A stretch of 64,000 bases of DNA from a phage: sequence record PQ478073.1; one strand, given 5' to 3'. Made by a program: the position numbers and the translations under genes. Of the stretch, positions 3,727 through 63,648 are shown in pieces (positions within the stretch are counted from its first letter, which is position 1; the number at the start of each line of letters is the position of its first letter). The notes beneath the pieces are model-generated. The model made no database searches and was not told where the DNA came from. It worked only from the letters and a program-made list of their open reading frames with translations.

Positions 3727-4008
3727 ATGAAAATTGTTGCAAGTGCATGGATGAAACTACCAGATGGTACAACTGCTTTTGAAGAATATGGCTTTGTTGA
3801 AAGTGTCGATGAATTAAAGCGTTTCAAGAGTGAAAATGATGATGATGTTTTTGATATTGTATTTGTATATCATCATATTCCTAATGATACTGATTATGAA
3901 CATTATTATTATCATCCTGATTTGTTGGAAACACTTGTATGCGACAACTATCATGAAATTGATGAAAATACAGCTTTACTAATGTTGAGTACCGTATCTC
4001 CGGTATAA
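3727..4008 (+). CDS. hypothetical protein (93 aa)
   Basis: ORF track; SD-like aaggattc upstream. Confidence 0.5.
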   Translation: MKIVASAWMKLPDGTTAFEEYGFVESVDELKRFKSENDDDVFDIVFVYHHIPNDTDYEHYYYHPDLLETLVCDNYHEIDENTALLMLSTVSPV

Positions 4009-4016
4009 GGAGTAAT

Positions 4017-4496
4017 ATGTATAATCTTATAATTATCCGCGAACCATATGAATCTGACAACAGTTCAACTGATGGTGAGGTTTTAGTATATCAAAGTTAT
4101 GAACAAAGTGGCATTGAACATGAATTAAAAGATTATTTACGTCAACATATATATCTATATCGTACCGAACCACGTGAACAGTATGGAGATATAATGTTTA
4201 TCGTAACTCATAATGGTGCAGTAATTGAACATGTAAATATGACAAATAACATGTATTTTCATAATTACACTGACACGTCTAAAGAATTAGGAAACGATTT
4301 CAAGTCTGTTTTCGATGCATTGCGTATCAATTTTTTTAAAAATGACAAATTCTGTACTGATATTAGATTAGAAGAAGCAAATACAAAAAAGAAACTTTCT
4401 CGAAAATACGAGAGTGATAGAAAAAAAGAACAAGAGATTCAGCGTTTACATGAATTGATGAAAAAATACCCTAATGAGGTACAACATGGCTCTTAG
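4017..4496 (+). CDS. hypothetical protein (159 aa)
   Basis: ORF track; aaggag SD upstream. Confidence 0.5.
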   Translation: MYNLIIIREPYESDNSSTDGEVLVYQSYEQSGIEHELKDYLRQHIYLYRTEPREQYGDIMFIVTHNGAVIEHVNMTNNMYFHNYTDTSKELGNDFKSVFDALRINFFKNDKFCTDIRLEEANTKKKLSRKYESDRKKEQEIQRLHELMKKYPNEVQHGS

Positions 4497-4824
4497 AGGT
4501 TCAAATCAATATAAATGTATTGCAGAGATCAGGAAGAAAGATGGAACACTTGTAGACCGAGCATTGAAGCAAGAATATAAAGAATTACGTGATGTGGTAC
4601 ATAATGATAGTTATGGTGGGATGCGTCGTCAAAAAATTTATGAATATCTAAAGAAAGGTTTAGAAATTCAGGTTAATGGTCTTCATTGCATTCAAACAAA
4701 AAACGATCCTGATATTCTACGTTTGTTGAAAGAAGATAAGATTGAAATGTTTAATGTTCCTATTTCATTCTATGGTAATAAACTAAAATGTAAGCATACT
4801 TTCTTGAGGATTAAAAATGGTTGA
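4474..4824 (+). CDS. hypothetical protein (116 aa), basic
   Basis: ORF track; overlaps upstream gene end. Confidence 0.45.
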   Translation: MRYNMALRGSNQYKCIAEIRKKDGTLVDRALKQEYKELRDVVHNDSYGGMRRQKIYEYLKKGLEIQVNGLHCIQTKNDPDILRLLKEDKIEMFNVPISFYGNKLKCKHTFLRIKNG

Positions 4825-5041
4825 TTCATTTATGAAAAAAATCTTTAAAAAATTACTATCTGGATTTGAAAAAGCAGTAAGTCTTATTTTCAGTTCAGTT
4901 GTAATGGTTATTACAGTACTGGTGTTTTCTCTAGTACTGCATTTTGTACCATTCTGGTTAATCTTTATTGTACTTATTGCTCTGCTAGGTGCACATGTTT
5001 ATTATGTTTACCGTGACGCATTGGATGATGATAACGATTAA
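4817..5041 (+). CDS. small membrane protein, holin-like topology (74 aa)
   Basis: GAGGA SD 6 nt before ATG; two predicted hydrophobic helices (VSLIFSSVVMVITVLVFSLVL, FWLIFIVLIALLGAHVYYVY) and acidic C-terminus DALDDDND. Confidence 0.45.
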   Translation: MVDSFMKKIFKKLLSGFEKAVSLIFSSVVMVITVLVFSLVLHFVPFWLIFIVLIALLGAHVYYVYRDALDDDND

Positions 5042-8178: not shown

Positions 8179-8511
8179 ATGCTAAATCTAAATATTCAAG
8201 GCAACGTTGATATCACTCCAGCAATCCAAGATGCTATTTACAATGAAGCAAAAAGTCTGGATAAGTACCGTACTTCTTCAGTACTAGACATTGGTGTTCA
8301 TGTTAAGAAAGAGCATAAAACTCAATATGCTGTAACTTTAACTGCTGGTAGTAAATCAGTAACTGCTGATGATGCTGATTTGTATAAAGCAATTGTTGAA
8401 TCTTTTGATAAGATGGAAACTGTATTCAGTAAAGACAAAAGCATTAAATTACACCGCAGAAACCATCCAGAACACCCAGTTCTTGATGATTTGACAGAAA
8501 ACGAAGAGTAA
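8179..8511 (+). CDS. hypothetical protein (110 aa)
   Basis: ORF track; aaggaaggtg SD. Confidence 0.5.
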   Translation: MLNLNIQGNVDITPAIQDAIYNEAKSLDKYRTSSVLDIGVHVKKEHKTQYAVTLTAGSKSVTADDADLYKAIVESFDKMETVFSKDKSIKLHRRNHPEHPVLDDLTENEE

Positions 8512-8521
8512 TATATACTAA

Positions 8522-8550
8522 AGGGACAGATTAATTCTGTCCCTTTTCTT
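8522..8550 (+). terminator. rho-independent terminator
   Basis: agggacaga / ttaat / tctgtccct hairpin followed by tttctt. Confidence 0.7.
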
Positions 8551-8564
8551 ATGGAGTTTTAATT

Positions 8565-25295: not shown

Positions 25296-26276
25296 ATGGC
25301 TAAAAAAATTAATGAAGCACAAGTTAAAATCGATATCGCAGGTTTAGAATCTGATGATTTGGAAACACTATCACGTATGTTAGCACTTGCTGGTCAAGCT
25401 GAACGTCAAGACCCAGTTGTTGCTGCTCCAGTACCATCAATGGGGTCTATGACTCCATCTCTTCCACCTATTGCTCCACTAGATCTAGATTCTATTGGTG
25501 CTGAAGAAGAAATTGGTGGAATTGAAACTTCAGTTGAAGACCCACTAGCAGCGGCAGTTGATGATCTTTCCGCTGATGTTGGTGATTTTGGTGCTGACTC
25601 AGATGAAGTTAGTATGGATGCTGAATTTTCAGAACCAGGTGTAGAAGGTGAAGAAGATTTTTCTCTTGACCTTAGTGGTCAACCTCAACTAGAATCAGTT
25701 GAAGAAGACGATGAGGAAGAAGAAGAAATTATTGAAGAAGAATTCGATTTTAGTCGTATGCTATCCCTTGCTGGTATTAACGAAGAAGAAGACGAAGATT
25801 TTTCCGTAGAGGGTAATCCTGCTACCGATAAAGAAATGAAAGATACCCAATTTCTACCAGATCTAAGTATCTCTGAAGATGAAGAACCATCTAACAGTAC
25901 TGATTATGGTCCATATGAAACAGAAGCTGATGCCGTTCGTGATGGTCAACTAAAGACTAATGGTGTTGAAGGTGACCATTTTGTTGTAATTGCAAAAGGC
26001 AATCAATTTTATTGGAGACGTGTTGTAGATGAAGATCTTGACAATCGTCCAGAACCTGAGTATTATGATAATGAAGGGAACGAAAATCGTGTTCATAAAT
26101 TTGAACCAAAATTCCCAGGCACTGCATTAGGAGATAACCCACTAAATGTTAATGAAAGTGAAGAAGATGATTCACCTGAAGGTAACATTGACTTGGAAGA
26201 TGATTCTGATGAAGAAGTAGAAGATATTTTTGAAAGTCTCCAAGAAAAATACAAGAAATTTTTAGGAGACAAATAA
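25296..26276 (+). CDS. highly acidic protein (326 aa)
   Basis: ORF track; long D/E runs (EEDDEEEEEIIEEEFDF). Confidence 0.55.
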   Translation: MAKKINEAQVKIDIAGLESDDLETLSRMLALAGQAERQDPVVAAPVPSMGSMTPSLPPIAPLDLDSIGAEEEIGGIETSVEDPLAAAVDDLSADVGDFGADSDEVSMDAEFSEPGVEGEEDFSLDLSGQPQLESVEEDDEEEEEIIEEEFDFSRMLSLAGINEEEDEDFSVEGNPATDKEMKDTQFLPDLSISEDEEPSNSTDYGPYETEADAVRDGQLKTNGVEGDHFVVIAKGNQFYWRRVVDEDLDNRPEPEYYDNEGNENRVHKFEPKFPGTALGDNPLNVNESEEDDSPEGNIDLEDDSDEEVEDIFESLQEKYKKFLGDK

Positions 26277-26277
26277 T

Positions 26278-26673
26278 ATGCAATATAATTATCGTGAACT
26301 AGTTGAAGCGTTAGACGAAATTACCGGAAGAGATGAAGACGAAAGTTTTTCAGTTGAAGTTGAATCCGATGTTGTAGCAGTTGATGTTCTTAAGGATATT
26401 ACCAAATGTCTTATTAACATTGTTGATAAGATTAAATCTGGTGAAGACCAAAAAGAAATTGTAGATAAACTACAAAAAGCCTGTGACATTTTGTCTGATA
26501 TTCGATATAATGATGAAAGTACTGAAGTTGCTGATGATGAAGTGTTGGAAGCCATTGCAGGTTGTTTTGGTACTGAAGGTATGGGACCAACAATTGACAA
26601 AGAAGGTGTACAACACTATAATGAACCTGGTGCACCATCTTATGCTGCACGTCAAGGTTTTGTTGGAGACTAA
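26278..26673 (+). CDS. hypothetical protein (131 aa), acidic
   Basis: ORF track; start overlaps upstream stop. Confidence 0.5.
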   Translation: MQYNYRELVEALDEITGRDEDESFSVEVESDVVAVDVLKDITKCLINIVDKIKSGEDQKEIVDKLQKACDILSDIRYNDESTEVADDEVLEAIAGCFGTEGMGPTIDKEGVQHYNEPGAPSYAARQGFVGD

Positions 26674-26676
26674 TAT

Positions 26677-27057
26677 ATGTTTCCAGAACCATCACATAAC
26701 AGTACTGAATATCAAAATAATGTACTTTCCAAAGTTAGGGAAGTACATGAATCAGATTCAGAAATAACAGACCGTATGCTTCTGATGTCAATTTTTGAAA
26801 ATTTCAGAACTGGCGGTGGTTTACGTCTTAGTAAGTTTGGATATGGAATTTGTAAAGAAAATAATCTTTATGAATTTACAAAAATCCCCTTGCAAAGAGA
26901 ATTTAAAAGTTCTATAATGTTTACATCACTTGACAGAATATGTACTTCACCTTACTATGTTGAAGGTCAGTACATATATCTGACAGATGCAATGATAATA
27001 ACTGAATTAACATTGTGTTGTGATGATTTTAAACAGTTATTTTCTATTCATATGTAA
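26677..27057 (+). CDS. hypothetical protein (126 aa)
   Basis: ORF track. Confidence 0.5.
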   Translation: MFPEPSHNSTEYQNNVLSKVREVHESDSEITDRMLLMSIFENFRTGGGLRLSKFGYGICKENNLYEFTKIPLQREFKSSIMFTSLDRICTSPYYVEGQYIYLTDAMIITELTLCCDDFKQLFSIHM

Positions 27058-27080
27058 GAAAAATGAGTTAAAAATAAATG

Positions 27081-27108
27081 TTGACAAGATAGAATGATGT
27101 GATATAAT
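27081..27108 (+). promoter_or_regulatory. sigma70-like consensus promoter (class B), upstream copy
   Basis: TTGACA 27081-27086, 16-nt spacer, TG-extended TATAAT 27103-27108. Confidence 0.65.
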
Positions 27109-27173
27109 AAGCATCAGACATAAAGTTTTCAAGCGTCACAAGATGTGAGTTTGAAAAAAAGAAAAAAAAGTGA

Positions 27174-27201
27174 TTGACAAGTTGAAACGATGTGATATAA
27201 T
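27174..27201 (+). promoter_or_regulatory. sigma70-like consensus promoter (class B), downstream copy
   Basis: TTGACA 27174-27179, 16-nt spacer, TG-extended TATAAT 27196-27201; core TTGACAAG...GATGTGATATAATG nearly identical to upstream copy. Confidence 0.65.
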
Positions 27202-27262
27202 GTTCACATCAAGACAGCAAAGAGATTTACCTTTTAAACACACGGATGATTCATGAAGTAAC

Positions 27263-27303
27263 AAAGGAACTGATAAGTTAAATTATTTTAACACAGTTCC
27301 TTT
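27263..27303 (+). promoter_or_regulatory. 5'-leader hairpin upstream of MoxR-like gene
   Basis: 10-bp perfect inverted repeat aaaggaactg ... cagttccttt with 21-nt loop. Confidence 0.45.
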
Positions 27304-27370
27304 ACTTTTGCCCACGGATTGGCTATAATAGAAACTTAAACGATTTTATCCAACAAAAGGAAATATATAC

Positions 27371-28696
27371 ATGACTACTCAAAACGATATCCTGAACGTT
27401 AAACTGACTCCAAAGAAAGCTAAAGAAGCAATGGCACTAGCTGACATGATTCAAGATAGCCTGATGATTTGGGGTAGCCCAGGTATCGGTAAGTCTGCAA
27501 TCGCTCGTCAATACGCTGATGAAAATTACCCACTGCGTAAAGATAACGTAGCTAAAATCGAGTTCATGAAACAACAAATCGAAGCTGACCCTGAAAATGC
27601 TGATCAGCTACGCCGTGAACTGGTTGCATTTGAAGCAAAACTAATCGACCAAGATACTAACTTTATCGATTTCCGTTTGTCTCAAATCGAACCAAGTGAC
27701 CTTCGCGGTATCCCTGTACCAGAGAAGCTTTTCCGTAAAACTGACGGTTCTCTTCTCAAAGAATCTGAGCTTGCTGAAGCAAAAGATTATGTGGCTGAAA
27801 CTGCTGTAGTATGGGCTGCACCTAAAGTACTGAAATTGTCCGAAGATTGGAAAGGTGTTATTCTGTTTGACGAAATTAACTCTGCAATGCCTATTGTTCA
27901 GGCAGCGTCTTATCAGCTAATCCTCGACCGTTGTGTTGGTGAGATGAAGCTACCTAAGACTGCACTGATTCTTGCAGCAGGTAACCGTGAAACTGATGGC
28001 GGTGTAACGTTCTCTCTTGCTACACCACTGCGTGACCGTATGACTCACATTGAGATGATTCCTTATCATCAAGATTGGATTAACGATTATGCGATTGCAA
28101 AACGTTTGAACCCAGCAACTGTTGCGTTCATCAACAACACTGGTTCTAAGTACTTTAACACACTTAGCCCACAAGATCCTTCTCACAGCGGTGGTACTTC
28201 TCCACGTTCATGGGAAGCAGTAGCACGCTACGAAGATCTCAAGAAAAATAAGACAATTGATAAAGAAGTGTTCCGTGCAATGATTGCTGGTCGTGTTGGT
28301 GAAGGTGTTGCGACTGAATACATTGAGTACGTTGAGAACGTTGCTAAACTACCAGATACTATGTCTATTCTGTCTGGTGAAATCAAAGAAATCGACGCAA
28401 CGCTGGATATTTCTGCGAACTACTTTATCACTCTGAACTTGGTTTATAAAATTATCGACCTGTTCAATGAGAAGCAAGAACAACGTCTACCAGTGGAAGA
28501 ATGGGGTAAACTGTGTAACAACTTCATCACCTTCCTAGACCATAACTTCTCTGCAACTCAAGCAGAACTGGCAGTACTGGCAATTCGTACCATCACGCTT
28601 CATAAGGTTGCGATTTCCATTAAAGATGTACCAGCGTTTAAAGATTTCATCGCTAAGTACTCTGAACTTGTACGTAAAGCACGCTCTCTTGGCTAA
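27371..28696 (+). CDS. MoxR-like AAA+ ATPase (441 aa)
   Basis: Walker A GSPGIGKS, Walker B VILFDEIN, ILAAGNRE sensor-1-like, SPRSWEAV sensor-2-like; aaggaaa SD; G/C-richer codon usage than neighbours. Confidence 0.75.
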   Translation: MTTQNDILNVKLTPKKAKEAMALADMIQDSLMIWGSPGIGKSAIARQYADENYPLRKDNVAKIEFMKQQIEADPENADQLRRELVAFEAKLIDQDTNFIDFRLSQIEPSDLRGIPVPEKLFRKTDGSLLKESELAEAKDYVAETAVVWAAPKVLKLSEDWKGVILFDEINSAMPIVQAASYQLILDRCVGEMKLPKTALILAAGNRETDGGVTFSLATPLRDRMTHIEMIPYHQDWINDYAIAKRLNPATVAFINNTGSKYFNTLSPQDPSHSGGTSPRSWEAVARYEDLKKNKTIDKEVFRAMIAGRVGEGVATEYIEYVENVAKLPDTMSILSGEIKEIDATLDISANYFITLNLVYKIIDLFNEKQEQRLPVEEWGKLCNNFITFLDHNFSATQAELAVLAIRTITLHKVAISIKDVPAFKDFIAKYSELVRKARSLG

Positions 28697-28717
28697 TTAA
28701 CAAAGAGTTGTTGACAA

Positions 28718-28750
28718 GAAGGATGCCTAATGGTATCCTTCTTTTATCTT
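28718..28750 (+). terminator. terminator-like hairpin overlapping a TTGACA -35-like hexamer
   Basis: gaaggat / 10-nt loop / atccttc followed by ttttatctt; TTGACA at 28711-28716. Confidence 0.5.
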
Positions 28751-28770
28751 AACTAAACGAGGAAATATAC

Positions 28771-30195
28771 ATGTCAGATAACAAATCTACTTCCAGATTT
28801 AATGAAGTATCTCCGGCACTCCAGAAAGAATGTCAAGAACGTCTGGTTCTGGCTCGTACATCTTTGATGTTAACTGCACCATTCTTTGGTGTACTCGCTT
28901 CACGTTTACGTCCAGTTCCTAATAATACATGGTGTCGTACTCTAGCAGTGGATGGTAAACATCTATTCTACAACGTAGAATTTGTAATGGGTATTCAAGA
29001 CCCATCTAAAAAGAAAGAATATGAAGAAGCTATTCGTGAAAAGCACCCTGAAGTTACAGACGAACAATTAAAAGAAATGACTGAAGGTTTGACTGATGAA
29101 AACCTTGTTGCAGTAATTTGTCATGAAATCCTACACTGTGCTTACGATCACTTCCTTCGTCGTGGTATGCGTGATCCACAACGTTATAACCGTGCAGCGG
29201 ATTATGCCATTAACCAAATCATCGTTCGTGAGAAAATTGGAAAAATCCAAAGTTCATGGTTGTATGATAAAAAATATGAAGGTATGACCGCAGAAGAGAT
29301 TTACATTCTTCTTGAAGAAGAAGAAGAAAAGCAAGATGGTGAAGGACAAGGACAACCACAAAGCGGTGGTGGTGAAGGTGAAGGTAAAAATCGTGGAACT
29401 TTTGGTGATATTAAAGATGGTAAGGGTAAACCAAAAGGTACTACAATTGACCAACATGACGTTCCACAAGAAGGTCAAGAAGGTGGTTCTAGTGAACAAC
29501 AAAAACGCGATTATATGGATGATTTCAAAACAGCAATGATGAATGCTGCACGTGCAGGTGGTACACCAGCAGAAATCGCTCGTATGATTAACAACTTCAA
29601 AGAACCAAAGATTGACTGGCGTTCAAAACTTCAACGTACTCTTCGTAGTTGGTTGAAGTCTGATGCAACTTATCAAAATCCAAATCGCCGTTCATGGGGT
29701 GCTGGTTTTGGTTCTAATGGTTCATTCTATGGTAATCCAATTTACCCAGGGATGAAACCAGATGATGATATTGATATTGCGATTGCACTAGATGCTTCTG
29801 GGTCTATTTCTGAAGATATGCTTCGTGATTTCATTAGTGAAGTTCTTGGCATCACTAAACAATTCAAACAGTTTAAGATTCGTATCATGACTTTTGATAC
29901 TGAAGTTTATACTGTAAAGGATTACAAAACTGGCGAAGAACGTAAGATTCTGGAATATCCAGTAAAAGGTGGTGGTGGTACTGACTTTGAAGCAGTATGG
30001 GTTCATATGAAGAACGACAACTACAAGCCTAAACAGCTTGTAATGTTTACTGATGGTGAACCGTGGCAGTCATGGGGTGATCCAAACTACTGTAAAACAC
30101 TGTTCGTGATTCACAGTAACCCAAATAAAGTTGCACCATTTGGTGAGACTGTACACTACGAATATGAAGCTGATAAAAAGCGTCAACGTAGTTAA
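28771..30195 (+). CDS. HExxH putative metallopeptidase domain + von Willebrand factor A (VWA) domain protein
   Basis: VAVICHEILHCAYDH (HExxH); Gly-rich linker; MIDAS-like DIAIALDASGSIS and downstream FTDGEP. Confidence 0.7.
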   Translation: MSDNKSTSRFNEVSPALQKECQERLVLARTSLMLTAPFFGVLASRLRPVPNNTWCRTLAVDGKHLFYNVEFVMGIQDPSKKKEYEEAIREKHPEVTDEQLKEMTEGLTDENLVAVICHEILHCAYDHFLRRGMRDPQRYNRAADYAINQIIVREKIGKIQSSWLYDKKYEGMTAEEIYILLEEEEEKQDGEGQGQPQSGGGEGEGKNRGTFGDIKDGKGKPKGTTIDQHDVPQEGQEGGSSEQQKRDYMDDFKTAMMNAARAGGTPAEIARMINNFKEPKIDWRSKLQRTLRSWLKSDATYQNPNRRSWGAGFGSNGSFYGNPIYPGMKPDDDIDIAIALDASGSISEDMLRDFISEVLGITKQFKQFKIRIMTFDTEVYTVKDYKTGEERKILEYPVKGGGGTDFEAVWVHMKNDNYKPKQLVMFTDGEPWQSWGDPNYCKTLFVIHSNPNKVAPFGETVHYEYEADKKRQRS

Positions 30196-30206
30196 GTACT
30201 AAATAA

Positions 30207-30237
30207 TGAGAACGGAATTTTCCGTTCTCTTCTTTTA
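30207..30237 (+). terminator. rho-independent terminator
   Basis: gagaacgg / aatt / ccgttctc hairpin followed by ttcttttat. Confidence 0.7.
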
Positions 30238-30241
30238 TAAG

Positions 30242-30270
30242 TGGGACAACTTATAAAAATATGATATAAT
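30242..30270 (+). promoter_or_regulatory. promoter-like site, class A
   Basis: TGGGAC 30242-30247, 17-nt spacer, TG-extended TATAAT 30265-30270. Confidence 0.55.
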
Positions 30271-30304
30271 AGTTAATGTACCAATATACATGGAGAGTAT
30301 TAAA

Positions 30305-30550
30305 ATGGAACAAGAAAATAATCAAATTCAACTAACCCTTCTAGACCTAATCAATGCTGCAAAAATCATGGAAGCTGCTGTTGCACGAAACACCTTTAAA
30401 GTTGAAGAACTCGTTGAGGTTGCTCCAGTTGTATCTAAATTTGTTTCTTTTGCAAATGTAGCTCTTGAAGATATTAAAGCACAAGAAGATGCAGCTAAAG
30501 AAGAAGCTGAATCACAAGATAGTGAAACTCAAGAAGATAAAGGAGAATAA
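30305..30550 (+). CDS. hypothetical acidic protein (81 aa)
   Basis: ORF track frame; ATG 30305 six nt after GGAGAG. Confidence 0.5.
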   Translation: MEQENNQIQLTLLDLINAAKIMEAAVARNTFKVEELVEVAPVVSKFVSFANVALEDIKAQEDAAKEEAESQDSETQEDKGE

Positions 30551-30552
30551 TT

Positions 30553-31209
30553 ATGGCAGCTATTCGTCATGTTGGTGTAATGCGTAATACAGGTTCTCGT
30601 GTTTTTGTTGTTTGGCGTTCACTACCAGATGATCCTGAACACTGCCTTATTGTTTATCGTGATTCACTACCAGAAGCATATGTTCACGCAGTAACTGATA
30701 TTGTTATGGGTCATGGTCAATCTAATATTGATTTGTGGGAAGTAATGCATAAAATTGGTTATCTCGATGGACGCAAAATGCTAGATGTTCTACACAATAT
30801 GCAGCATCTACGTCGCGTTCGTACTTGTGACATTGATATGCACACTGGTGGTAATAATAAAATTTCTCTTGATGTTCTAAACAAAGCATTAGATGAAAAT
30901 CAAGCAAAAGTACAAGAAGATGGTAAAGTAAAAGACTTTAACCCATTCAATCCACAAGAAGCGGACACTAAAGTAGAAGAAGCTACTATTGTAGAACAAC
31001 TTCTCACTGATGCACAAAAATATGAAAAACTGGCTAAAGAACATTATGAACGTGCATATAATTTAGAGCCAAGTTTGCGTCCACAAACACAAGTTGTTGA
31101 ACAACCGAAAGATAGTAAAACAATTTATCTAGAAATTCCAGAAGGTATTTCACAGACTAAAGCTATTGAGAAAGTAAAACAACTATTTGCAGAACGTAAA
31201 GCAAAATAA
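30553..31209 (+). CDS. hypothetical protein (218 aa)
   Basis: ORF track; aaggagaa SD. Confidence 0.55.
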   Translation: MAAIRHVGVMRNTGSRVFVVWRSLPDDPEHCLIVYRDSLPEAYVHAVTDIVMGHGQSNIDLWEVMHKIGYLDGRKMLDVLHNMQHLRRVRTCDIDMHTGGNNKISLDVLNKALDENQAKVQEDGKVKDFNPFNPQEADTKVEEATIVEQLLTDAQKYEKLAKEHYERAYNLEPSLRPQTQVVEQPKDSKTIYLEIPEGISQTKAIEKVKQLFAERKAK

Positions 31210-49703: not shown

Positions 49704-51205
49704 TCTGTGTCCTTATGTATGCGATAAACAGTATTAGGTTTAACTGCGTCATGTAATGGAACTTTGTTATCACTATTTACAAACTGTGTAAGTGCTAAGT
49801 CTGCACCTTCCCACGGTTTTCTTCCACCATAATCAAAAATAACCCATGAATTCTTAGTTGCATTGAATTCCCATAACGTAACTGGAGTATAATCGGTGCG
49901 ATAGAAATAGTCACCATCTACTGCATCAGTTGGGAACATATTTCCTTCAGGGACTGTACCTCGTGCTGGTGGAATTTTAGGACGATAATCTTGTTGCGAA
50001 TCAATATTACCATATACACAATTGGACGTGAATGGTTCATTGACATAAGTTACCTTTGGTTCCCCCCACTTGTCATCATTATACTGATAAATGTGTGGTT
50101 CTTTATAAAAAATACAAAAATCTTCCACATCTTCTGGTGGAACATCACTGGTAGTATATTCTACATCACAATTTAACCATTTTTTAGCACTTTTATCATA
50201 TTGATACAACGTATAACCTGTCACATCTGCGTCATTTTCTTTAAAGAAGAAGTCACCATCCATTGGTTTTCTGGGAAAGATGGTTCCACGCTTGACTTCC
50301 ACAAAAATCCATGTATCATTAACAAACTCTTTGAGTACTGGGTATGTTTTTTTCAAAAAATACATTCCATCGGCAGGTTCTTCTGGAAAATCATAACCGT
50401 TAAGCATATATTTTGATAAATCTACTGTATCAGGTCGATCATCATACAAATGTTCATTTGTATAATGAATATAGGGTACTTCATCATCAGCTTGCATGAT
50501 GATACGGTTCATGATATCCATTTCATTGCCATAGTTACTGTTTTCCGACGAACCATCATCGGTATTTCCATTACCATTATTAGGGTCATCTGGATTATCA
50601 GGATAATTATTGTTACCGAGTAAATCGGAGTACTCAGGTGAGTCGGTTAGCGGTTTAACTCTAAGTTTATAAATGTGATGTTGCCACGTAACCGAGTATC
50701 CCTCAGATGTACGAAATGCATCTTGGACGACATAGAAGCGGTTTAGACCTGTATCTTTACCCAATACATCAAAATCACGTAAATTTGGTAGTTCTATCAC
50801 ATCCCCTGGCATGATTTTTCTACCTAAACGCTGCATCATTGTATTATAATGGATTGTGATGTCCATAGTGTTGAAATTAAAGAACAATCCTGGGATTTTC
50901 AAGTCTGGAGTTGCTTCTTGAACTTGATAGACACAACTAAGTGTGATAGCTTCAAGGTTGTAGTTTCTGTTTGGTGTGTCACCAAAAATTAAATCGCCAA
51001 TACTTGACACAACTGATCCTGAAGATGTATAATCACCTCCATAGGATAAGTCAGTGTTGTCAGCAACTTGTTTTGGACCGACATATGCATAAAGCCACAT
51101 GTCAACTCCACCAATGTTGTATTGTTCAGCAATGGCAGAATCAATGAACTTGTAATCATTGGTTCTACCTTTTTTCCACATTCTATATGTCATGATTGTC
51201 TCCAA
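49700..51205 (-). CDS. hypothetical protein (501 aa) with three copies of a DG[DM][FY]F...W motif
   Basis: ORF track; GGAGA SD; repeats PMDGDFFFKEND..., PADGMYFLKKTYP..., AVDGDYFYRTDYT... Confidence 0.55.
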   Translation of the reverse strand: METIMTYRMWKKGRTNDYKFIDSAIAEQYNIGGVDMWLYAYVGPKQVADNTDLSYGGDYTSSGSVVSSIGDLIFGDTPNRNYNLEAITLSCVYQVQEATPDLKIPGLFFNFNTMDITIHYNTMMQRLGRKIMPGDVIELPNLRDFDVLGKDTGLNRFYVVQDAFRTSEGYSVTWQHHIYKLRVKPLTDSPEYSDLLGNNNYPDNPDDPNNGNGNTDDGSSENSNYGNEMDIMNRIIMQADDEVPYIHYTNEHLYDDRPDTVDLSKYMLNGYDFPEEPADGMYFLKKTYPVLKEFVNDTWIFVEVKRGTIFPRKPMDGDFFFKENDADVTGYTLYQYDKSAKKWLNCDVEYTTSDVPPEDVEDFCIFYKEPHIYQYNDDKWGEPKVTYVNEPFTSNCVYGNIDSQQDYRPKIPPARGTVPEGNMFPTDAVDGDYFYRTDYTPVTLWEFNATKNSWVIFDYGGRKPWEGADLALTQFVNSDNKVPLHDAVKPNTVYRIHKDTE

Positions 51206-53628: not shown

Positions 53629-56600
53629 TTATTTAACTAATAATATATTTTTAATATCATTACCACTAACTTGTAGACTATCAGTGTATACTGAAAGATC
53701 TATAGTGTAACTATTTTGTGTGTAACGTTTTAACATATCATAATTACCTAAATTAATTCCATTGAATGAATATGTAGTATTAAGTTTAAAATCATGTTCT
53801 GCACTATACATTACTCCACGGAGTAAATTATTTGCATTTCTAACTTCAACTTTTTCATATCCAATCGATATAATATCATTTATGTTCGCGGCAGAACCGG
53901 ATAAAACATTATTTCTAATACTATAAGGACTTATTGATTTAGGTTGAGAAACATAGGTTGTATTTTCTTCACTAATGGTTGTGATGTTAGTAACCGTACC
54001 ACCAACAACACCGATGTACATACCGTCAACCATTGGATAACCATAAACCCATATACCTTCATTATTTCTAAACGGTTGAATAACACTTGAATCATATTCA
54101 ATAACGTTGATTTCTAAACTATCAGTCATTTTAGTTCTTGCTAATTCACTAAGAACTCCCGCACCAGTAATTGGTAGGTTATAACCGTTGTCGATAGTAA
54201 TTCCATCAACATCAAATATTTCGTTAGAGATTATCCAAACGTCAACGTCATCTGGTGTTATTCCGTCATTGTACTTACCACCATTTAAAGTAGTATCGTA
54301 GAAAACATCATAATTAATTACATCAATTGTGTAATTTCTATTTTGTTCGTACAATTTGATACCATTCTTCACAAATTCTGGGTCAGCAAATGTTCTAACA
54401 CGAACAATGTTCAATGCAAGAGGCTGTACTGGCTCATTTTGTTGTGCAAGAGTGATATTATCATAACGGAGAACTGCACCAGTACTCTCATCAATCAATT
54501 CAATCGTTTCTTTACCTGTATTTCTTACAGTGAATAGGATCGGAGTTGTATTGTTTTTGATGTTAGATACACGCAAGATTGTTTCCCATGTGTGATTTTG
54601 ATATCTCACAAAATCTTCACCATCAGGAGTGAAAATCATCACCTTATCACCATCAGATAGGTCATTGTCAACTATTTCTGCTTCAGTTAAGCTATTAATA
54701 GATCTCACACGATAGAAATATTTTTCATCAAACTTCGATGTTGTTTTATTAATATCATTTTCAATCTTAGCATATGAAGGAATACTAACAATTGCTTCTG
54801 TATGTTTATATGGATTGATAATTGCCATACCTTCAGTTTGATATCTGCTGTTATCACGTAATTGTACAAGAGATACATTGTCAAACCCATATCCATCAAC
54901 TGTAAATCTAATTTGACCAACATCACGCCCAGAAGGGTTTATGTCAGATATATCCACAATATAAGGATCAACTTCATCATCTTTAACTTCCCATTTTATT
55001 GAAGAAGTTTGAGATTCTAATGCTAGGTTATCAAATGCATTCATATCATTGAAGTACTTAGCTTCAGTAATACTATCAAGTATATATTGATAATCTGAAT
55101 ACATTGGGTTATTTTGATCTAGTGGTAAATCATCTAGATTTATTTCAGCTAGTTCAATCATTTCACCATTTGTGATAAAATAATCTTCCATGAAATCATC
55201 AATACTTTGTTCATCAGGTATACTTTGATATACACCGTTAACATTTAAGTAAACATATTTTCGTGGAATCATTGTAATTGCATAGATATCAATTGGGGTT
55301 TTACTAAGAATCTCTTCAGCTTTTTCGTACTTATCAGTAGCGTCTTTGTCGAATAACCCTCTCATACCTGCTAATACGTGAATAGCATCAGTATAGAAAC
55401 GGGTATCACCACCGACTTCATCATAACGATAAACATATACACCATACTCAACTTCAAGTTTAACTTTTACTTCATAGTCTGATGCGTCAGGATTTTTATC
55501 TTTAATTAATGAAATATATTTTTGATACAGTTCACTGCTTATTTCAAAATATCCATAGTTATAATCATTACTAGAAGAAAAGCCTAATGGAAGTCTAGTA
55601 CTAGGATTGTCATTATAAGTAAGTCCACTAAATCCACAACCAACTTCATCGTGAATTTTCTCATCACTTATATCTTTATAAAGTTTCAAACGGTTTGCCA
55701 ATGTGTTATACTGAACATATTGTCTAAGGTCAGTAAACATATCGTTCTGCGTTGATTCTTTATAAACACGCTCCAATGTAGCAGTAAATTCATCAGTTGC
55801 TTCTAAATCTTCCGCATGGTCTTTATACCACTGGTTAACACCATATGCTGTTCCTAATGTTACATCCAATTCTGGATAGTAGATTTGCATTTGATAAGCA
55901 ATAAGAAGATCGAAAGTTTCTTCACTATATTCTGGGAAAGAATATATATAACGTTGTAATTCATAGTTACTAACAGCATCCTTTTCATTGGATTGATATT
56001 TGTTATTAACACTTACTAATTCATTTATGCTTGCTAAATCTGCATTTGGTTTACATTGAATGTTATCGTAATGCATAATAATATCAATTTCTTGGAATCT
56101 TCTATTTGGTGTAATGAAATCACTTGGTAGTGAACCTACCTGTTCCCATTTTTGGGTAATTTCATTAAATTGAGCGTACTCATAATCCCAAATATCTTTT
56201 TCAGTTTTGACCCAAGAACCGTCAACGAAAATATATCCATTAGGATCTAAATCATTACACAGACCTTTTATTAAATCATCATCAGATGTCTTTTGCTCTA
56301 TTTGTGAACGAATTTTAGTTCTATAAGGTTTAACTTCTTCAAAATATTCAACAATTTGATTAATCAAATTATCGTTTGAATAGTTTTGAACTAATGATTG
56401 TTCCAAACCAACAATATAGATATATGATGTTTTAAATACCCAATCCACAACACTTTGTTCAACATGTACATATTTGACCATATCAAAAACAATTTCGCTT
56501 TGATGTAAATCGAAAGAATTTTTGAGTAAAGCTAGTGCTTTACGAACGTTGATTTCACGATTGCTTAGTGAACCATTATCATTATGAACACTATAATCTG

Positions 56601-59600
56601 CGTAAAGCATATCATTGAGTTCAACTGTACTGTTTTCACGACCAATCGCTTTCCAATAAATTGAATCGCGTGATTGTGATTTAATATACAATGTCCAAAT
56701 GTTTTCACTATCGGTAACTCTGATAATATCTCCAACTTGGTAGTTTTTAGTATTAGCATCTTCTAAGCTTGACTCTTGTGTATAAGTCGTGTTACTATCA
56801 TACCCAACATCATACCAATCAGCATATGACCAGTACTGAGTCATGTCCAATGAAGTTCCTAGTGATTCAACATAATCAGATTGTTTAATCATTTTATGTT
56901 GTCCCTCACCTTTGTTCTCTAACGTTATAGTAACAACACTACCCGCGTTTGCTGGACTATTCATTAACTGAATATATCCATTTTCGTCGAAGTGAATAAA
57001 ATAAACAGCACTAGAAGTTAATGGATTTGGTAGATATCCACTAGTACTTAAAATAACAGCGTCATTTTCTTTAAATTTATCACTTTCAACTGCAATAACT
57101 AATTCATTATTGTAAGACAATACACGGAAAGAAACTTCATTCGGGTTAACTTCAGTGGTTTTAACATTAAACACATCTTCCATAACAACACTATTAGTGG
57201 TTATGTTTTGTGACCTATAATAATTATTAGCACTTTCTACAAAGTTTCTACGAGCTTCTATAACATTTTGGAACCAAGTTTTGTTTGAACCTAAACCGTT
57301 ATCAACATCTGGATATAATAAATTAATCACAGAACCTGATTCAGTTGTTTCTTGACCAATTAGTGAGTTCCACATTGAATCCCAAATTAGTGGGTTAAAG
57401 TTATAGCTGTCACCTTCTTTACATAGTTGATACTGGTCATGTTTAACAACTTCAGTACTATCCATGTAATAAGAAACAGTTAAAATACTGGTATCATCAT
57501 TCACTTTAAATTGCATATTACTAAGAATAAACGAGTTTTCATTGATTGGAGCGAACCAAGGAATGTTTAGCTGTGTTGGATCTTTAATAATACGAGCAAT
57601 GTCAGTACATGATTTTGTTCTGGTATGTAGTGGTGGTACATAAATTGTATCACGTACCCAGAAATAGTATTTTGTCACATAACTATCAGTTGAACTATCA
57701 TATTCCAAAAATGTACTATAATTATCTTCAAGTGCAGTTCCACTTGGTAGATACATAGTATTATTTTTGTTTTTCTTAGCAACATCTTTACAGTATTTGT
57801 CCCAGTTATATGGCTCAACTGGTGAACAAACCCACTCTAACACATCAATTGTACTATGTGGTAATAAACGACCCCAGTTGTAACGTTTGTATTCATTGGT
57901 TGCATCAATGTCAACATTACCGTCTGCGTCATAAATTGCACGAGTATAATCCAAATAAAATGCAGTGCTAGTGTTCCACCATACTTGACCAACTTTATCA
58001 GCACCCCAAGCCTGGATTAACTCTCCATTACTATTATACTGTGCAGGATCAACTGGTGAAGTATATGTTACGTTTTGCATAGCCGCACCTGGAATAACAC
58101 CATTAATTGGGTCATAAACGTTTAGATATAGCTCAGTAATGTTAGTACGTTCATCATATGTCGTTGGACGATCAAATAAAGTACTTTGTGGTGCTTTAAA
58201 ACTATATTTCTTGTCAATGTAAGCTTGACGTTCATCAGTACTGGCAAAACGTGATACATAACGATACAAACGTGGACGTGTATCTGGATCAGTAAATTCA
58301 ATATCAATAGAAGTGTCAAATGGAACTACCATAACTTTAGGATCAGAACCAGCAGTATAATATTGACTTTCTACTGTTAAAGTATCTGGCATAAAGTTAG
58401 TTTCATCAACAAAATAATAATAATCACCATCTTCAAGTGGTACATTATCAGTTAAAGTTACTTTACAAAATTGTTCAGCATACACATCGGTATTTTCAAT
58501 AGGTGTTATAGAAACCATTTGAACATTAGTATCAACCAATTCAAAAATGTTCCACAAACCATTACCGTCTTTAAACATCCACACAGATTCAGGATTTTCA
58601 CCTTTACCATTAGTATAAGTTATGCGGTCATTATATGCAGTACTGAAATCTTTTGTTGTGTACGATACTTCATCCAATGTTACTGGACCAATATCTGGAA
58701 GTTGGATATTTTCACTTCTTCCACTACGCATTGGGAATGAGAACTTACCATTTGGACGTGTAATCCAACGAGGATCTTTACCCTGCTCACCGAAGTATAC
58801 AATATGATTACCATTACCATTTGAAGTTGCATTTACATCAAAAGAAACCATTTGAGGTTGTTGTTTAAATTGGTCATTGATTAGTTTAAATTGAAGGTTT
58901 TTCTTACCATCAATATTACCATATGTACCAATTTTAAATGCCCATTCTTGTAATGCTTTATATTCATCAGTGTCATATGATTTAGAAACACGAAGGACAC
59001 GTTCTAAAACTTGGTTAGTACCTTTATCGTGAATGAATCCTTTATAGAAATCAACACGACTAACATCACTACTAATCATACGCTGTAGATAATCACGAGA
59101 TTGATAACCAATCAAATGGTTTGACAACTCTTGTAATTGTACATCACTTACTGGAGTTTCACTATCATAATAATGTTGGAAATCCGACACTAATTTTTCA
59201 AATGATGGTAGTGTTCCAGCTTCCAAGATAATAAATCCAGGAGCTTGTAGGCGACCAGTCCATGAACCAGTAATATATCCATACATTTTAATTAGTTCTT
59301 GAATAGAACCATATGTTGGCTGATAAATGTAATCACCAAAAATAGTTTTATCATCAAAAATAACAGCATGTTCATATGAACACAAACTTAAACGAATCAA
59401 TGCAATGCGTTTATTAGATTCTAAAGTTCTAACAGTGAAGATATTTCCAATACGAGAAGTTTCAATTTCATATTGGCGAATACCTTGGTTATTATCATCA
59501 AGTAATGACCATACACCACCATTATTTTGCGTAATAGATTGTACTGAACCAAAGTCTGCCCCAAATTTAGCGTTTGCAGCACTTGGGGTACAAGAAATAA

Positions 59601-62600
59601 ATTCACCAGTTACTAGAGAATTCTGACTCCAGATCACGAAATCTTTAGCAATAGTGTTCCAATCTTGTTGAGCACCACTATCATTTACATCTTCAAAAAT
59701 CCAACCATGTTCTTTAAGATATTCACCATATCCACAAATAAAAGTATAAACTTCTTGGTAACTATTGAAAACTTTACCATATTCAATTGAAGCTTCAGAC
59801 TTCCATTCATTATAATGAACAACATTACGGTTTTCCAATTTAAGAGTTACTTTTCTACCATTTTTTACGGGAAGTTTATATTTAAATTTAGCACCAACTA
59901 GATCATATCCATCAATCTGATATGCACTACCATTCCAAGTAATTTTGATCGCACTCATTTGCTCATCACGGATATTATTAGAACGAACAAGACCAATGGT
60001 TTGGTTTTCTTGTGAAATAAGACCGAAAGATTTAGCATTGAATGTTAGCTGATCTGCTTTAGTAAATCCTCCAATTTTATGACCAACATTTATATAAGAA
60101 GAACGAACTACATCCCCATACTTGGTGGTAATATTTTTATTTTGATACATCAAATGGTCACTTACAAACATTTGATAACCAATTGTTCTTGTGCTATTTT
60201 CACCATGAACTACTGTATTTTTATCAAAATTAATACGCTTACGTGTATCACCATAAAGGAATTGTGAACCATCAGTGAATACTTCTTTTAAGTTATCATT
60301 GCGGGTATCCCAGAAATAGTTAGCAAATTGTGCTGGTTTAGCTTTATACAAAAGCATCATTTGGTCATATGCAAACAATGTAGTGTTCATGTATGTAAAT
60401 TCCATGTCACCCATATCACCATATGTCCAAGGTTCTGCTCTATGATTTAAAGATCCAGACACTAAACCTAAAATTTCAGGTGCAATATATTCAACCACAC
60501 AAATATCAATACCAGAAGATGTTTTATTTCCAGTTTTTGTAATTTTGAATGGCTGTACACCAAATCTTTTATATTTGTCATATTGACCACGACGATCACC
60601 AAATAAAATAGTTCCAGTACTGCTATCGCCAATACTTCCGTCAATATCCCAAAGACCACTAGGAACTAAATCACCTTGCTCATTCATAACAAGTGCTTCA
60701 TATACATATACAACATCACTATCACGTTCACCAACTTGAACAGCCGTTGGTTCGTATTCTTGGTTCCACCAAGTTGGACGTTGTGTAAAGCCAAACATTT
60801 CCCACGGATGGGTAGCTGGGCGATATGTACCATATTGGTCAGTGTAAATGGCACGCCATGAACCACGTGCAGGAATTTCAGTACTTTGACCATTAACTAC
60901 ATAATAAGTGCCAGTATAGTTCCAAGTTCTCCAATTGTTAGGATCATAATCATGTGTACTATTACTGATACCATTAGTTGCGGTGAAGTTAATGTATCCA
61001 CGTAGTAATAATGTTTGTTTCTCTTCAGCACTATATTCAGTTTTAGTGAAATATGGTGTAGGGAAAAGGTCATCACTATTCAATACTGGTACGTAATCAA
61101 CATCTTTGAATTTATTATCAATACTATTAAAAATTCTATTTTCTAATTCATATACAACATCATCCATTTTATCAACACCATTGATAACACGGTATGCTTT
61201 GGAAATAATACCAGTATGACTGATGTTATAACAGCTTGGTTTACTACCAGCAGTGAGGAATGTCGCTTTTTCTGGTACATATGCTTGAAGAATACCTAAG
61301 AACTGTGGTGTTGGTGGTATAAATGCACGAATGAATCCAGAAGTACTTCCAACATTATCATAATAGAATGGGAATGAACTATCACGTCCCATATTAATAG
61401 TAGTTAAAATTGCATCAACAATGTTTGCAGCACTATTTTGTAAAAAGTCTGATGGATTTTCATCATACATACGAAGCATTTGTGTATTAAATTTATTAAT
61501 GAATCTAAAATATTCAGATTGCATAAACATAGTTGCTTCAAATAAATCAATATCTTCATTTGCAGTATGTGCCATCAATGGAAGCATAGATGCTTCATTT
61601 TGGATAATTTTAGTACCTACGCCATTATTAACCAATCCTTTAGCCAAACGTTCTTCATAGTCATTGAAATCATCAGAAGAACCACGTGTAATGTTCTTTT
61701 GAATAATATCCTGAAAATGTAAAGTGTAGTCACCTTGGTTAATGTATATAATATTAGAATTATATGGGTTATTTTGTAGGTTGATTGGAACTTCATAAGC
61801 ACCTAATTCTTTATCAGGTGTTACAGTACTGCTATAAGTTCTGATTTGAATAACAGAATCTTCATCCAATTCTACAGTACTATCTAGAGTGATGCTTTGT
61901 ACTTGACCTTTTGAAACATTTTTGGTATATTTGGACACATCAACACCATCAACCACAACTTCAATAATATCAGAATCATTATCTAAAACTTTTTGTGCCA
62001 ATTCGAATGTATGGTCATATTTTACAATCTGAACACCATCACCAGTAATTGGATGCCAATCTAGATAAGTTTCTCGGTCAGCTTTATAGTACTGATATGT
62101 TCTATCAACTTCAATAACATATGCATACATACCATCAACTGGTTCTTTAAAAACTTCCATATCATAAACAGTACTGAATACACGATACATATCAGTACGT
62201 TTGACTTGTGGAGTTTGTTTTACAAATTGTTTAGAGTACTCTTCTGAACGAACCCAATCGGTTTGAAGATTCATTTCATTATTTTCATCAATAATGTTAT
62301 AATAGTATAAACCATCAATTTCAACTTCTTTTCCAAGATGGTCATAGGTATAACGTTGGGATTGTAAAAAGTTTTCATAAATGTAATAATTATAATCACC
62401 AAGTTCAATGTTATATCCATATACACTATCAGTTGCATAGTTGTAATTTATTTTAAAACCAAACAACTCTGAACCTTTAAAGTTACTTGATGGATATGTA
62501 GTACTGTTGTCAAGTTTGATACCATTACGATCATAAAGTTGGAATTTAGGGAATACGTTAACACTAGTTTTTGATTGTGCACGAACCCACAAAGAACCAT

Positions 62601-63600: not shown

Positions 63601-63648
63601 TTTTGGACTCCATATAATTCGTTCATTCATTTGATTTATTTATGATAT

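Follow-up and report, generated by a model that had tools for sequence, protein, structure and literature searches.

A MoxR-type AAA+ ATPase and its VWA partner with a putative zincin domain in a 121Q-like jumbo coliphage

What do the two adjacent genes at positions 27,081–30,237 of a 64,000-nucleotide stretch of phage DNA (sequence record PQ478073.1; hereafter the window) do for the phage that carries them? Over its full length, the segment 27000–30300 shares 98.4% identity with Escherichia phages 121Q, PBECO4, phAPEC6, G17, and other Asteriusvirus, which are jumbo phages of ~350 kb. The window is DNA of a 121Q-like jumbo coliphage and carries a genuine two-gene cassette, composed of a MoxR-type AAA+ motor and a partner with putative zinc-peptidase and VWA domains. 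The explanation that we favor, and to which we give an even chance of being correct, is that the pair constitutes an AAA+ machine with two components, of the N4 gp24/gp25 type, that acts on a host protein, most likely for the early neutralization of a bacterial anti-phage system.

The pair is not undescribed, since it has been annotated earlier in many large phages under inconsistent names. In 121Q the genes are named gp563 "ATPase" and gp564 "Zn-dependent hydrolase (T4-gp25-like)", and are flanked by a block of structural-annotated genes on one side and by thymidylate synthase on the other. The orthologues from phAPEC6 are deposited in GenBank as gp265c "MoxR ATPase" and gp264c "N4 gp25-like protein", and the ATPase orthologue of phage RaK2 is labeled 'Gp24-like'. 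The cassette is a member of a known, already annotated family, the mechanism of which is unsolved. The present analysis provides a structural link of the ATPase to NorQ, corrects the label "HNH endonuclease" given to the partner, ties the cassette to the sole phenotype reported for the family, and describes a conserved leader RNA.

Domain organization of the ATPase and its partner

The original prediction of a MoxR/VWA pair is borne out by two co-directional open reading frames (ORFs) on the plus strand, the domains of which support both identities. ORF 27371–28696 encodes the 441-residue ATPase, and ORF 28771–30195 encodes the 474-residue partner, in which an N-terminal zincin-type domain is followed by a Gly/Glu-rich linker and a C-terminal VWA domain.

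All catalytic residues are intact in the ATPase, which belongs to the helix-2-insert AAA+ proteins of the MoxR class. The anticipated motifs are present and conserved across 28 homologues with identities down to ~30%: Walker A GSPGIGKS (residues 35–42; 27473–27496, plus strand), Walker B FDEIN (residues 166–170; 27866–27880, plus strand), and sensor 2 SPR (residues 277–279; 28199–28207, plus strand). Sensor 1 is formed by N205, and the arginine finger is also intact. Residues G35, G38, K41, S42, E168, N205, R223, P278, and R279 are invariant among the homologues, and D167 is conserved in at least 90% of them.

The Walker A lysine and the Walker B aspartate are separated by 125 residues, in comparison with 61–65 in compact members of the family. 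A single insert of about 110 residues had been proposed to lie between the two motifs. The long spacing stands; however, the excess is only ~62 residues and is divided into two insertions, at residues 53–93 and 118–146, which contribute ~41 and ~22 extra residues, respectively. Insertion 1 (27527–27649, plus strand) is restricted to the jumbo-phage clade and absent from compact homologues. In an AlphaFold2 model of the ATPase, built on 28 sequences with a predicted local distance difference test score (pLDDT) of 86, it forms a helical hairpin of helices 56–72 and 74–90 with pLDDT > 90. Insertion 2 (27722–27808, plus strand) is a lengthened helix-2-insert beta-hairpin of 29 residues, compared to 5–10 in compact homologues, with modeled strands 114–123 and 140–149. 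A short hairpin at ~188–194 precedes strand 199–205; both beta-hairpins were identified from secondary structure only. As modeled, these beta-hairpins, one between Walker A and Walker B and the other before sensor 1, correspond to the inserts that a member of the helix-2-insert clade should have. Clade-specific contacts would most obviously be made by the lengthened helix-2 insert and by the additional helical hairpin (residues 56–90).

The top eight matches of the ATPase model in a Foldseek search of the PDB are chains of NorQ or NorQD, with E-values of 2e-7 to 2e-6 and template modeling (TM) scores on the target of 0.58–0.61. The matched structures of the NorQ hexamer and of NorQ-NorD were released in 2026. 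McrB, sigma-54 activators, Lon, clamp loaders, and RuvB rank after NorQ, and the TM scores on the query are 0.24–0.30 for clamp loaders and RuvB versus 0.38 for NorQ. The assignment to MoxR rather than to a clamp-loader or RuvB family was thus upheld, with NorQ structures as the best match. Clamp-loader, RuvB, MCM, and sigma-54-activator identities were rejected, as these rank under NorQ with poorer TM scores and much larger root-mean-square deviations. When a profile of the ATPase family was compared with solved structures, the AAA_5-type AAA modules of Midasin scored best (E 7e-14).

The Pfam scores of the ATPase itself are below the gathering thresholds (AAA_5, 15.5 versus 22; AAA_3, 16.7 versus 27), and its score for the generic AAA family, 21.2, is exactly at threshold. 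Full-length homologues at ~30% identity pass the AAA_5 threshold with 39.8 and 31.1 bits, and homologues at this level of identity carry AAA_5 and AAA_3, with precomputed PF07726/PF07728 assignments. The ATPase matches PHROG 1297 "ATPase" over residues 8–436 with an E-value of 1.9e-107. A scan of the ATPase and the partner against NCBIfam gave no matches, and single-sequence searches against PDB sequences found nothing significant for the pair, so that profiles were needed.

The partner, as judged from its sequence, is composed of a zincin-type HExxH domain that is a putative peptidase and of a VWA domain bearing a metal ion-dependent adhesion site (MIDAS). It matches the Pfam families DUF2201_N (PF13203, putative metallopeptidase; E 3.5e-35) and DUF2201 (VWA-like; E 6.9e-21), and belongs to PHROG 1314 (E 3.1e-128, residues 12–465). 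The HEILH zinc-binding and catalytic motif (residues 118–122; 29122–29136, plus strand) sits within the modeled helix 109–128, and H118, E119, and H122 are invariant in 30 homologues. HExxH is also kept in N4 gp25 and Bas58_0055. A profile of the N-terminal domain matches the minigluzincin selecase MJ1213 (E 1e-3) in an alignment that spans a strand and the HExxH helix; the M48-type peptidases HtpX and BepA match more weakly than selecase.

The Gly/Glu-rich linker (residues 193–221; 29347–29433, plus strand) is probably disordered. Its length varies among homologues, and its pLDDT is below 50, as is that of residues 298–329. The VWA domain (residues ~330–465; 29758–30165, plus strand) has a Rossmann-like alpha/beta fold and a complete MIDAS formed by D341-x-S343-x-S345 (DASGS), T404, and D428 (TDG), all invariant in the 30 homologues. 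The HEILH motif, the Gly-rich linker, and the DASGS/TDG MIDAS recognized in the original prediction are therefore all present, and both the VWA-like Pfam match and the complete MIDAS agree with the VWA structure that it assigned to the second gene. A search of the literature on DUF2201 and COG3864 found nothing relevant.

PHROG 1314 and many GenBank records label the partner "HNH endonuclease", and in 121Q and K64-1 it is 'T4 gp25-like' or 'gp25-like'. Both "HNH endonuclease" and "T4 gp25-like" are annotation errors, as no HNH or baseplate family was detected in the partner and its domains are of the zincin and VWA types. The 'T4 gp25-like' label probably arose from confusion of N4 gp25 with the T4 baseplate protein gp25.

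Relatives in phages and bacteria

Among 50,697 phage records, tblastn identified 754 with the partner and 840 with the ATPase. Among the carriers are Rak2-like jumbo phages, PA5oct-like phages, V5-like and CR3-like myoviruses, and N4-like podoviruses, as well as Bacillus phage G, cyanophage S-TIM5, and Thermus phage phiYS40. Besides the window ATPase, PHROG 1297 includes Bas54_0063 (E 2.2e-110) and N4 gp24 (E 2.1e-136), and PHROG 1314 holds the window partner together with N4 gp25 and the partner homologues from Bas54 and Bas58. In bacterial data with one genome per species, 462 stretches encode relatives of the ATPase. Representatives of the partner family at 50% identity number 25,141 (E ≤ 1e-3). 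A partner homologue is present at 71 of 84 loci, nearly always within ~2 kb downstream of the ATPase gene. The two genes are adjacent in the window, in Rak2-like phages, in N4, and at most bacterial loci. In V5-like phages both genes are present but separated, and in the PA5oct-like phage Paride the partner lies ~3.4 kb downstream of the ATPase gene; PA5oct too holds a partner homologue. The two bacterial loci that were inspected are ordinary chromosomal neighborhoods, one with Hsp33 and type II secretion genes and the other with genes of cysteine and sulfate metabolism. The pair is an old and widespread cellular two-gene module that was adopted by large phages.

In Pseudomonas phage Paride (4001–5116 and 8557–9099 of the locus), the partner homology lies under a coding sequence annotated 'homing endonuclease', and the ORFs that separate the ATPase and partner genes include another 'homing endonuclease'. 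In V5-like phages, the gene immediately upstream of the partner, such as bas58_0056 (3984–4958 of its locus) beside the partner homologue bas58_0055, bears the annotation 'anti-sigma factor'. Its matches are to PHROG 3118 ('HNH endonuclease') and, at lower strength, to Srd and sigma-70-decoy PHROGs, and it is not an ATPase. The ATPase gene of this V5-like phage is ~4 kb away on the other strand.

The gp24/gp25 pair of N4 (Schitoviridae) belongs to the same two PHROGs over its full length, with adjacent genes in the same order and with HExxH and MIDAS retained. Relative to N4, the jumbo-phage ATPase is ~90 residues longer and has the two clade-specific insertions, and the partner has an extra 34-residue insert in its N-terminal domain. 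In the window, the pair is preceded by tandem sigma-70 consensus promoters of its own and by a conserved leader; the N4 genes, in contrast, are middle-class. Phage Bas54 (Escherichia phage MaxBurger, Vequintavirinae) encodes the MoxR ATPase bas54_0063 (57234–58418, identity verified in MZ501093) and the putative metallopeptidase bas54_0055 from the same PHROGs, and the latter matches the window partner in both domains. As a homologue of the window ATPase, bas54_0063 is full-length, and the alignment of the two covers the whole AAA+ core and lid (BLASTP, E 5e-33, 383 columns; tblastn, E ~1e-30). However, the identity is ~24%, bas54_0063 lacks the two insertions, and the Bas54 genes are ~4 kb apart on opposite strands. 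Within the family, a phenotype has been reported only for the Bas54 member, namely a requirement against the DS-28 system.

NorQ is the closest solved fold for the window ATPase, at 11–15% sequence identity. The VWA domain of NorD resembles that of the partner, including the MIDAS, and the order of an ATPase gene followed by a VWA gene is common to both systems. By analogy, the finger-in-pore mechanics of NorQ-NorD are likely to be shared by the window pair. In contrast to NorQ, which has ~255 residues, the window ATPase contains an additional helical C-terminal region of ~150 residues and the two insertions, and unlike the window partner, NorD and CbbO lack a HExxH domain. No nitric oxide reductase (NOR) or Rubisco client gene was found in the window. 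The proposal that the cassette is of the NorQ-NorD/CbbQ-CbbO type consequently holds for its resemblance in mechanism, but not for subfamily membership: the ATPase has 441 residues and insertions, there is no client, and, because the N-terminal domain of the partner is of the zincin type, the pair is not a member of the CGN (NorQ/NorD-CbbQ/CbbO) subfamily.

Stand-alone operons of AAA_5 and DUF2201_N/DUF2201 genes in many bacteria, some of which are recorded as Sll7029/Sll7028, have the same architecture and gene order as the window cassette, with ~30% identity for the ATPase and 24–44% for the partner. In distinction to the phage cassette, they are cellular, lie in housekeeping neighborhoods rather than in prophages, and encode compact ATPases that pass the Pfam AAA_5 threshold. 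The MoxR-vWA ternary conflict systems (Kaur et al. 2020), for which a role in virus–host conflict was proposed, combine a MoxR ATPase with a fusion of vWA and a peptidase, occasionally a metallopeptidase. However, these systems belong to host defense, contain a third sensor component (VMAP/iSTAND), and mostly have trypsin or caspase effectors, whereas the window pair is phage-borne, consists of two genes, has no third conserved gene, and has no PADLOC match. Neither the ATPase nor the partner matched a defense family of PADLOC-DB v2 at E ≤ 0.01.

Promoters, leader RNA, and expression

The pair sits behind host-type sigma-70 consensus promoters. Two near-identical strong promoters had been predicted upstream of the ATPase gene, and P1 (27081–27108) and P2 (27174–27201), both on the plus strand, indeed each match the consensus TTGACA-16-TATAAT at 12 of 12 positions and have an extended -10 TG. 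They are contained in the two copies of a 39-nucleotide direct repeat (27070–27108 and 27163–27201) positioned 93 nucleotides apart. Perfect TTGACA-N15-18-TATAAT sites occur four times in the 64-kb window, compared to 0.21 expected, and none of 100 shuffled sequences reached four. The tandem duplication is confined to Asteriusvirus, and the -10 element of the P1 counterpart in 121Q reads TACAAT. The other two perfect sites (TTGACA-N17/18-TATAAT) are at 26594–26622, inside ORF 26278–26673 and ~480 nucleotides upstream of P1, and at 51004–51033.

The sequence between the promoters and the ATPase gene encodes a conserved leader RNA element (27240–27323, plus strand) with an ACGGAU motif (GGA at 27244–27246) followed by two hairpins. 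The predicted leader hairpin 1 (27263–27303) has arms 27263–27272 and 27294–27303, which form a perfect 10-bp stem with an energy of −15.2 kcal/mol and a z-score of −4.35 versus shuffled controls. The stem is followed by ACUUUUG, which gives it the look of a terminator. Hairpin 2 (27310–27323) displays a CGGA loop (GGA at 27316–27318). The leader was compared among 18 IMG/VR loci with ATPases that are 54–100% identical, which contain 14 distinct upstream regions. All 14 share the same layout: an extended -10 promoter, an A(C/U)GGA(U/A) motif, a 9–10-bp hairpin with a U-tract, a 5-bp hairpin with a YGGA loop, and a start codon 40–60 nucleotides later. The TGnTATAAT promoter element was found upstream of the leader hairpins in all 10 relatives whose 135-nucleotide stretch reaches it; those of the window and of locus L090 were located in a full scan of 340 nucleotides, and the window, L089, and L090 have in addition a complete TTGAC -35 element.

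In the 14 distinct relatives, 90.7% of the cells of the aligned leader helices are paired, and seven of the 16 pairs exhibit compensatory changes on both sides. The covariation score of 0.286, in comparison with a shuffle mean of 0.10, was reached by none of 500 shuffles, and slid controls were 18–49% paired. A covariance model scored 53.5 bits at the leader and detected the complete element nowhere else in the window. Its weaker matches at 8505–8562 and 12506–12565, considered as further copies of the leader, are ordinary intergenic terminators. The element was also found at L002 3864–3945 and L003 3885–3951, and the 14 relatives that support it belong to several jumbo-phage genera. A TATAAT sequence 3' of hairpin 1 (27324–27329) was not counted as a promoter, as it is not conserved past the closest relatives. 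The conserved leader RNA is an extra regulatory element that is not described in the literature searched.

In every relative whose upstream sequence reaches the promoter, the order is promoter, terminator-like hairpin, gene. On the 3' side of the partner gene the order is the opposite, with a terminator preceding a TGnTATAAT promoter in all relatives examined. Because it is conserved, the order of promoter and then terminator speaks for attenuation, binding of a regulatory protein, or production of a short RNA. Transcription from P1 and P2 may be attenuated or otherwise regulated by the two-hairpin leader.

A ribosome-binding site, AAAGGAAA (27355–27363, plus strand), is located ~8 nucleotides before the ATG of the ATPase gene. 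The strongest terminator-like hairpin of the locus, which was absent from the original prediction, lies between the two genes (28716–28743, plus strand) and consists of a 12-bp stem followed by UUUUAUCUU, with an energy of −18.6 kcal/mol and a z-score of −6.3. An equivalent is present in 10 of the 14 distinct relatives, and in the other four the genes nearly abut, being 14–21 nucleotides apart. The hairpin overlaps a promoter-like TTGACA-17-TATCCT sequence at 28711–28739. The cassette is closed by a terminator with a 9-bp stem followed by UUCUUUU (30208–30229, plus strand). Insulation of the cassette by terminators had been proposed for both sides; it applies to the downstream side, but no terminator-like site was found between the upstream neighbor gene, which has its stop codon at 27057, and P1. 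The junction at 30208–30270, conserved in all relatives, continues from the terminator directly into the extended -10 promoter GGGACA-16-TGaTATAAT, which starts a unit encoding an 86-residue acidic protein and a 218-residue protein.

The G/C-richer codons attributed to the ATPase were evident in the comparison of 55 ORFs, among which its gene ranks first for both GC content (0.42) and GC content at third codon positions (0.354; mean 0.22, standard deviation 0.05). CTG accounts for 39% of its leucine codons, compared to a median of 3%. The bias is common to the Klebsiella RaK2-like clade, in which the ATPase has 79% amino acid identity, and absent in Serratia phage BF; recent horizontal transfer is therefore less likely, and host-specific translational selection fits the observation. 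The nucleotide sequence suggests that the cassette is highly expressed. In the virion proteome of phAPEC6, determined by mass spectrometry, gp265c was detected (6 peptides, 19% coverage), whereas the partner gp264c was not. Together, the intergenic terminator, the ATPase-specific codon optimization, and the detection of gp265c but not gp264c suggest that more ATPase than partner is produced, which fits a 6:1 complex.

Candidate function and its alternatives

The functional lead comes from the HIDEN-SEQ preprint, which describes a transposon library of the V5-like phage Bas54 (10.1101/2025.11.20.689424). Both bas54_0063 'MoxR ATPase' and the partner homologue bas54_0055 were non-essential on K-12, with insertions in 60 of 64 and 81 of 86 TA sites, respectively (10.1101/2025.11.20.689424). 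The bas54_0063 knock-out was sensitive to the cloned DS-28 system from the uropathogenic Escherichia coli (UPEC) strain CFE311, and the resampling table for the clinical strain lists log2 fold changes of −7.23 (q = 0) for bas54_0063 and −2.20 (q = 0.009) for bas54_0055 (10.1101/2025.11.20.689424). Both halves of the module matter on the same clinical host, the ATPase much more strongly. As the two genes are depleted on the same clinical isolate, counter-defense is ranked first among the possible functions. The literature searched contains no description of DS-28 beyond its DefenseFinder name and its two genes. The pair is not mentioned in a PA5oct transcriptome preprint, the CRISPRi-ART paper, or a second transposon-mutagenesis preprint.

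The cryo-EM structure of NorQD provides a template for how such a machine might work. A finger of the VWA domain is inserted into the pore of the ATPase ring, where it is contacted by the helix-2 inserts; there is also a C-terminal contact, and rotation powered by ATP stretches the linker to NorD's N-terminal domain (PMC13036017). The authors presume that the finger-in-pore mode is general for AAA+/VWA pairs (PMC13036017). By analogy, six subunits of the window ATPase may form a ring that grips the VWA domain or a disordered segment of the partner, a loop or linker of which would enter the pore. ATP hydrolysis would then twist or pull the partner. The MIDAS could hold an acidic residue of the target protein, and the mechanical work would open the target, or unmask or position the tethered zincin, for cleavage. 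The target is envisaged as a host protein, and the purpose as the neutralization of an anti-phage system early in infection, as suggested by the one homologue from Bas54.

In a more specific form, which we regard as less likely than not, the pair would be a counter-defense protease: the MoxR ring and the VWA/MIDAS domain seize a host immune protein, for example a component of DS-28, and the zincin cuts or dismantles it, while the leader tunes output and may yield a small RNA. Modules of the N4 gp24/gp25 type would then be a general anti-immunity machine. Few gene pairs of large lytic phages that still lack a mechanism are conserved as widely as the one of the N4 gp24/gp25 type. The NorQ-like fold, the complete MIDAS, the invariant zincin motif, and the counter-defense phenotype lead to the hypothesis, for jumbo coliphages relevant to therapy, that the two proteins form a protease driven by the AAA+ motor and directed at a host protein. 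If the pair does counteract defense, it would provide ATP-dependent enzymatic immune evasion and would help explain host range. If it does so as a protease, the modules present in hundreds of large lytic phages would represent a general enzymatic anti-immunity machine.

Several observations weigh against a role in counter-defense. The phenotype is reported for Bas54 and not for Asteriusvirus; it comes from one preprint, a homologue that is ~24% identical, and one poorly described system. The partner homologue bas54_0055 was depleted far less than the ATPase and was not named as an anti-DS-28 gene by the authors. In supplement 9, the sheet 'Data S6', which holds these fold changes, is titled resampling_K-12_vs_CFE303, whereas the 311 sample is given in its command line and data files. 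In addition, gp24/gp25 are among the 14 core genes of N4-like phages (PMC4193335), and the pair is syntenic across Rak2-like genera. Core status and synteny hint at a more basic role, as typical counter-defense genes are variable accessory genes. The housekeeping neighborhoods of the bacterial homologues indicate that the module has a cellular function unrelated to phages, and one bacterial homologue has lost the HExxH motif (NCVMH). As to the preprint's tables themselves, both resampling sheets report 27 significant genes, and their labels may be swapped or duplicated (10.1101/2025.11.20.689424).

It is unlikely that the pair is a morphogenesis chaperone that remodels or matures virion proteins, with the peptidase processing a structural precursor and some of the ATPase staying with the particle. 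The detection of gp265c in the phAPEC6 virion proteome would fit such a role, but the same proteome contains thymidylate synthase, so abundant non-structural proteins were carried over, and the partner gp264c was missing from it. The cassette is directly downstream of the structural-annotated block in 121Q and in phage BF; however, it has sigma-70-type promoters of its own in place of read-on from the structural operon. A MoxR-VWA pair is cited as a tail-assembly system of an archaeal virus in the part of PMC7159879 that refers to Scheele 2011. Nevertheless, the V5-like homologues tolerate insertions on K-12, so they are not needed for infective virions there, and the N4 genes are of the middle class and not late (PMC4193335).

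A role as a cofactor- or metal-insertion chaperone or activase similar to NorQ/NorD, CbbQ/CbbO, or CobS/CobT, activating a phage or host metalloenzyme, for example of nucleotide metabolism, without degradation, is judged equally improbable. It fits the fold of the ATPase, and N4 gp24 weakly matches the CobS-type PHROG 249 (E 6.8e-7). Nevertheless, the N-terminal domain of the partner is of the zincin type with an invariant HExxH, whereas that of NorD is described as a ring- and target-binding module and not a peptidase (PMC13036017). Genes of nucleotide metabolism are nearby, thymidylate synthase in the window and dCTP deaminase beside N4 gp25, and the housekeeping context of the bacterial homologues is also in line with an activase. 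However, there is no fixed client gene: the neighboring genes vary from Rak2-like to V5-like, N4-like, and PA5oct-like phages, and the V5-like and PA5oct-like groups do not even keep the two genes side by side. The conditional phenotype on a specific clinical strain fits better with a host-specific target, as in the counter-defense explanation.

The leader raises an alternative of its own, that the strong promoters mainly produce a short non-coding RNA extending from P1 or P2 to the U-tract of hairpin 1 (~100 nucleotides from P2), with the ATPase mRNA arising by read-through. The order of promoter, terminator-like hairpin, and gene is consistent with this, as is the resemblance of hairpin 1 to the ordinary intrinsic terminators of the phage. 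A GGA sequence in a hairpin loop is the recognition pattern of CsrA. The leader has two conserved A(C/U)GGA(U/A) motifs, one single-stranded and the other in the loop of hairpin 2, which could titrate CsrA or another RNA-binding protein. However, termination may be weak, as hairpin 1 has a 21-nucleotide loop and an interrupted U-tract in the window, and a scan of 26500–30600 against Rfam (E ≤ 1) gave only chance matches to miRNAs and snoRNAs and no matching family. The codon optimization and the detection of the ATPase by mass spectrometry argue for plentiful read-through mRNA. Overall, a mainly non-coding output is improbable. This alternative deals with nothing but the leader and can be combined with any proposed protein function.

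A replication or transcription factor, in which the AAA+ protein acts on DNA or on the transcription apparatus at the early-to-middle switch, is very unlikely: N4 gp24/gp25 are core genes with middle transcripts (PMC4193335) that adjoin dCTP deaminase upstream of rIIA/rIIB, and some homologues carry the labels 'transcriptional regulator MoxR1' and 'Transcription factor', which are of uncertain origin, but no DNA-binding domain was detected in the pair, NorQ is a better structural match than RuvB, clamp loaders, MCM, or sigma-54 activators, the Bas54 homologues are dispensable on K-12, and the VWA/MIDAS and zincin-type domains of the partner suggest that the substrate is a protein.

No tRNA genes were found across the 64-kb window. 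Upstream of the cassette, positions 25296–26276 encode an extremely acidic, Asp/Glu-rich protein of 326 residues; its 121Q counterpart, gp560, is annotated as structural, and that of phAPEC6, gp267c, was detected in the virion proteome. On the minus strand, positions 53629–63630 form one ORF of 3333 residues.

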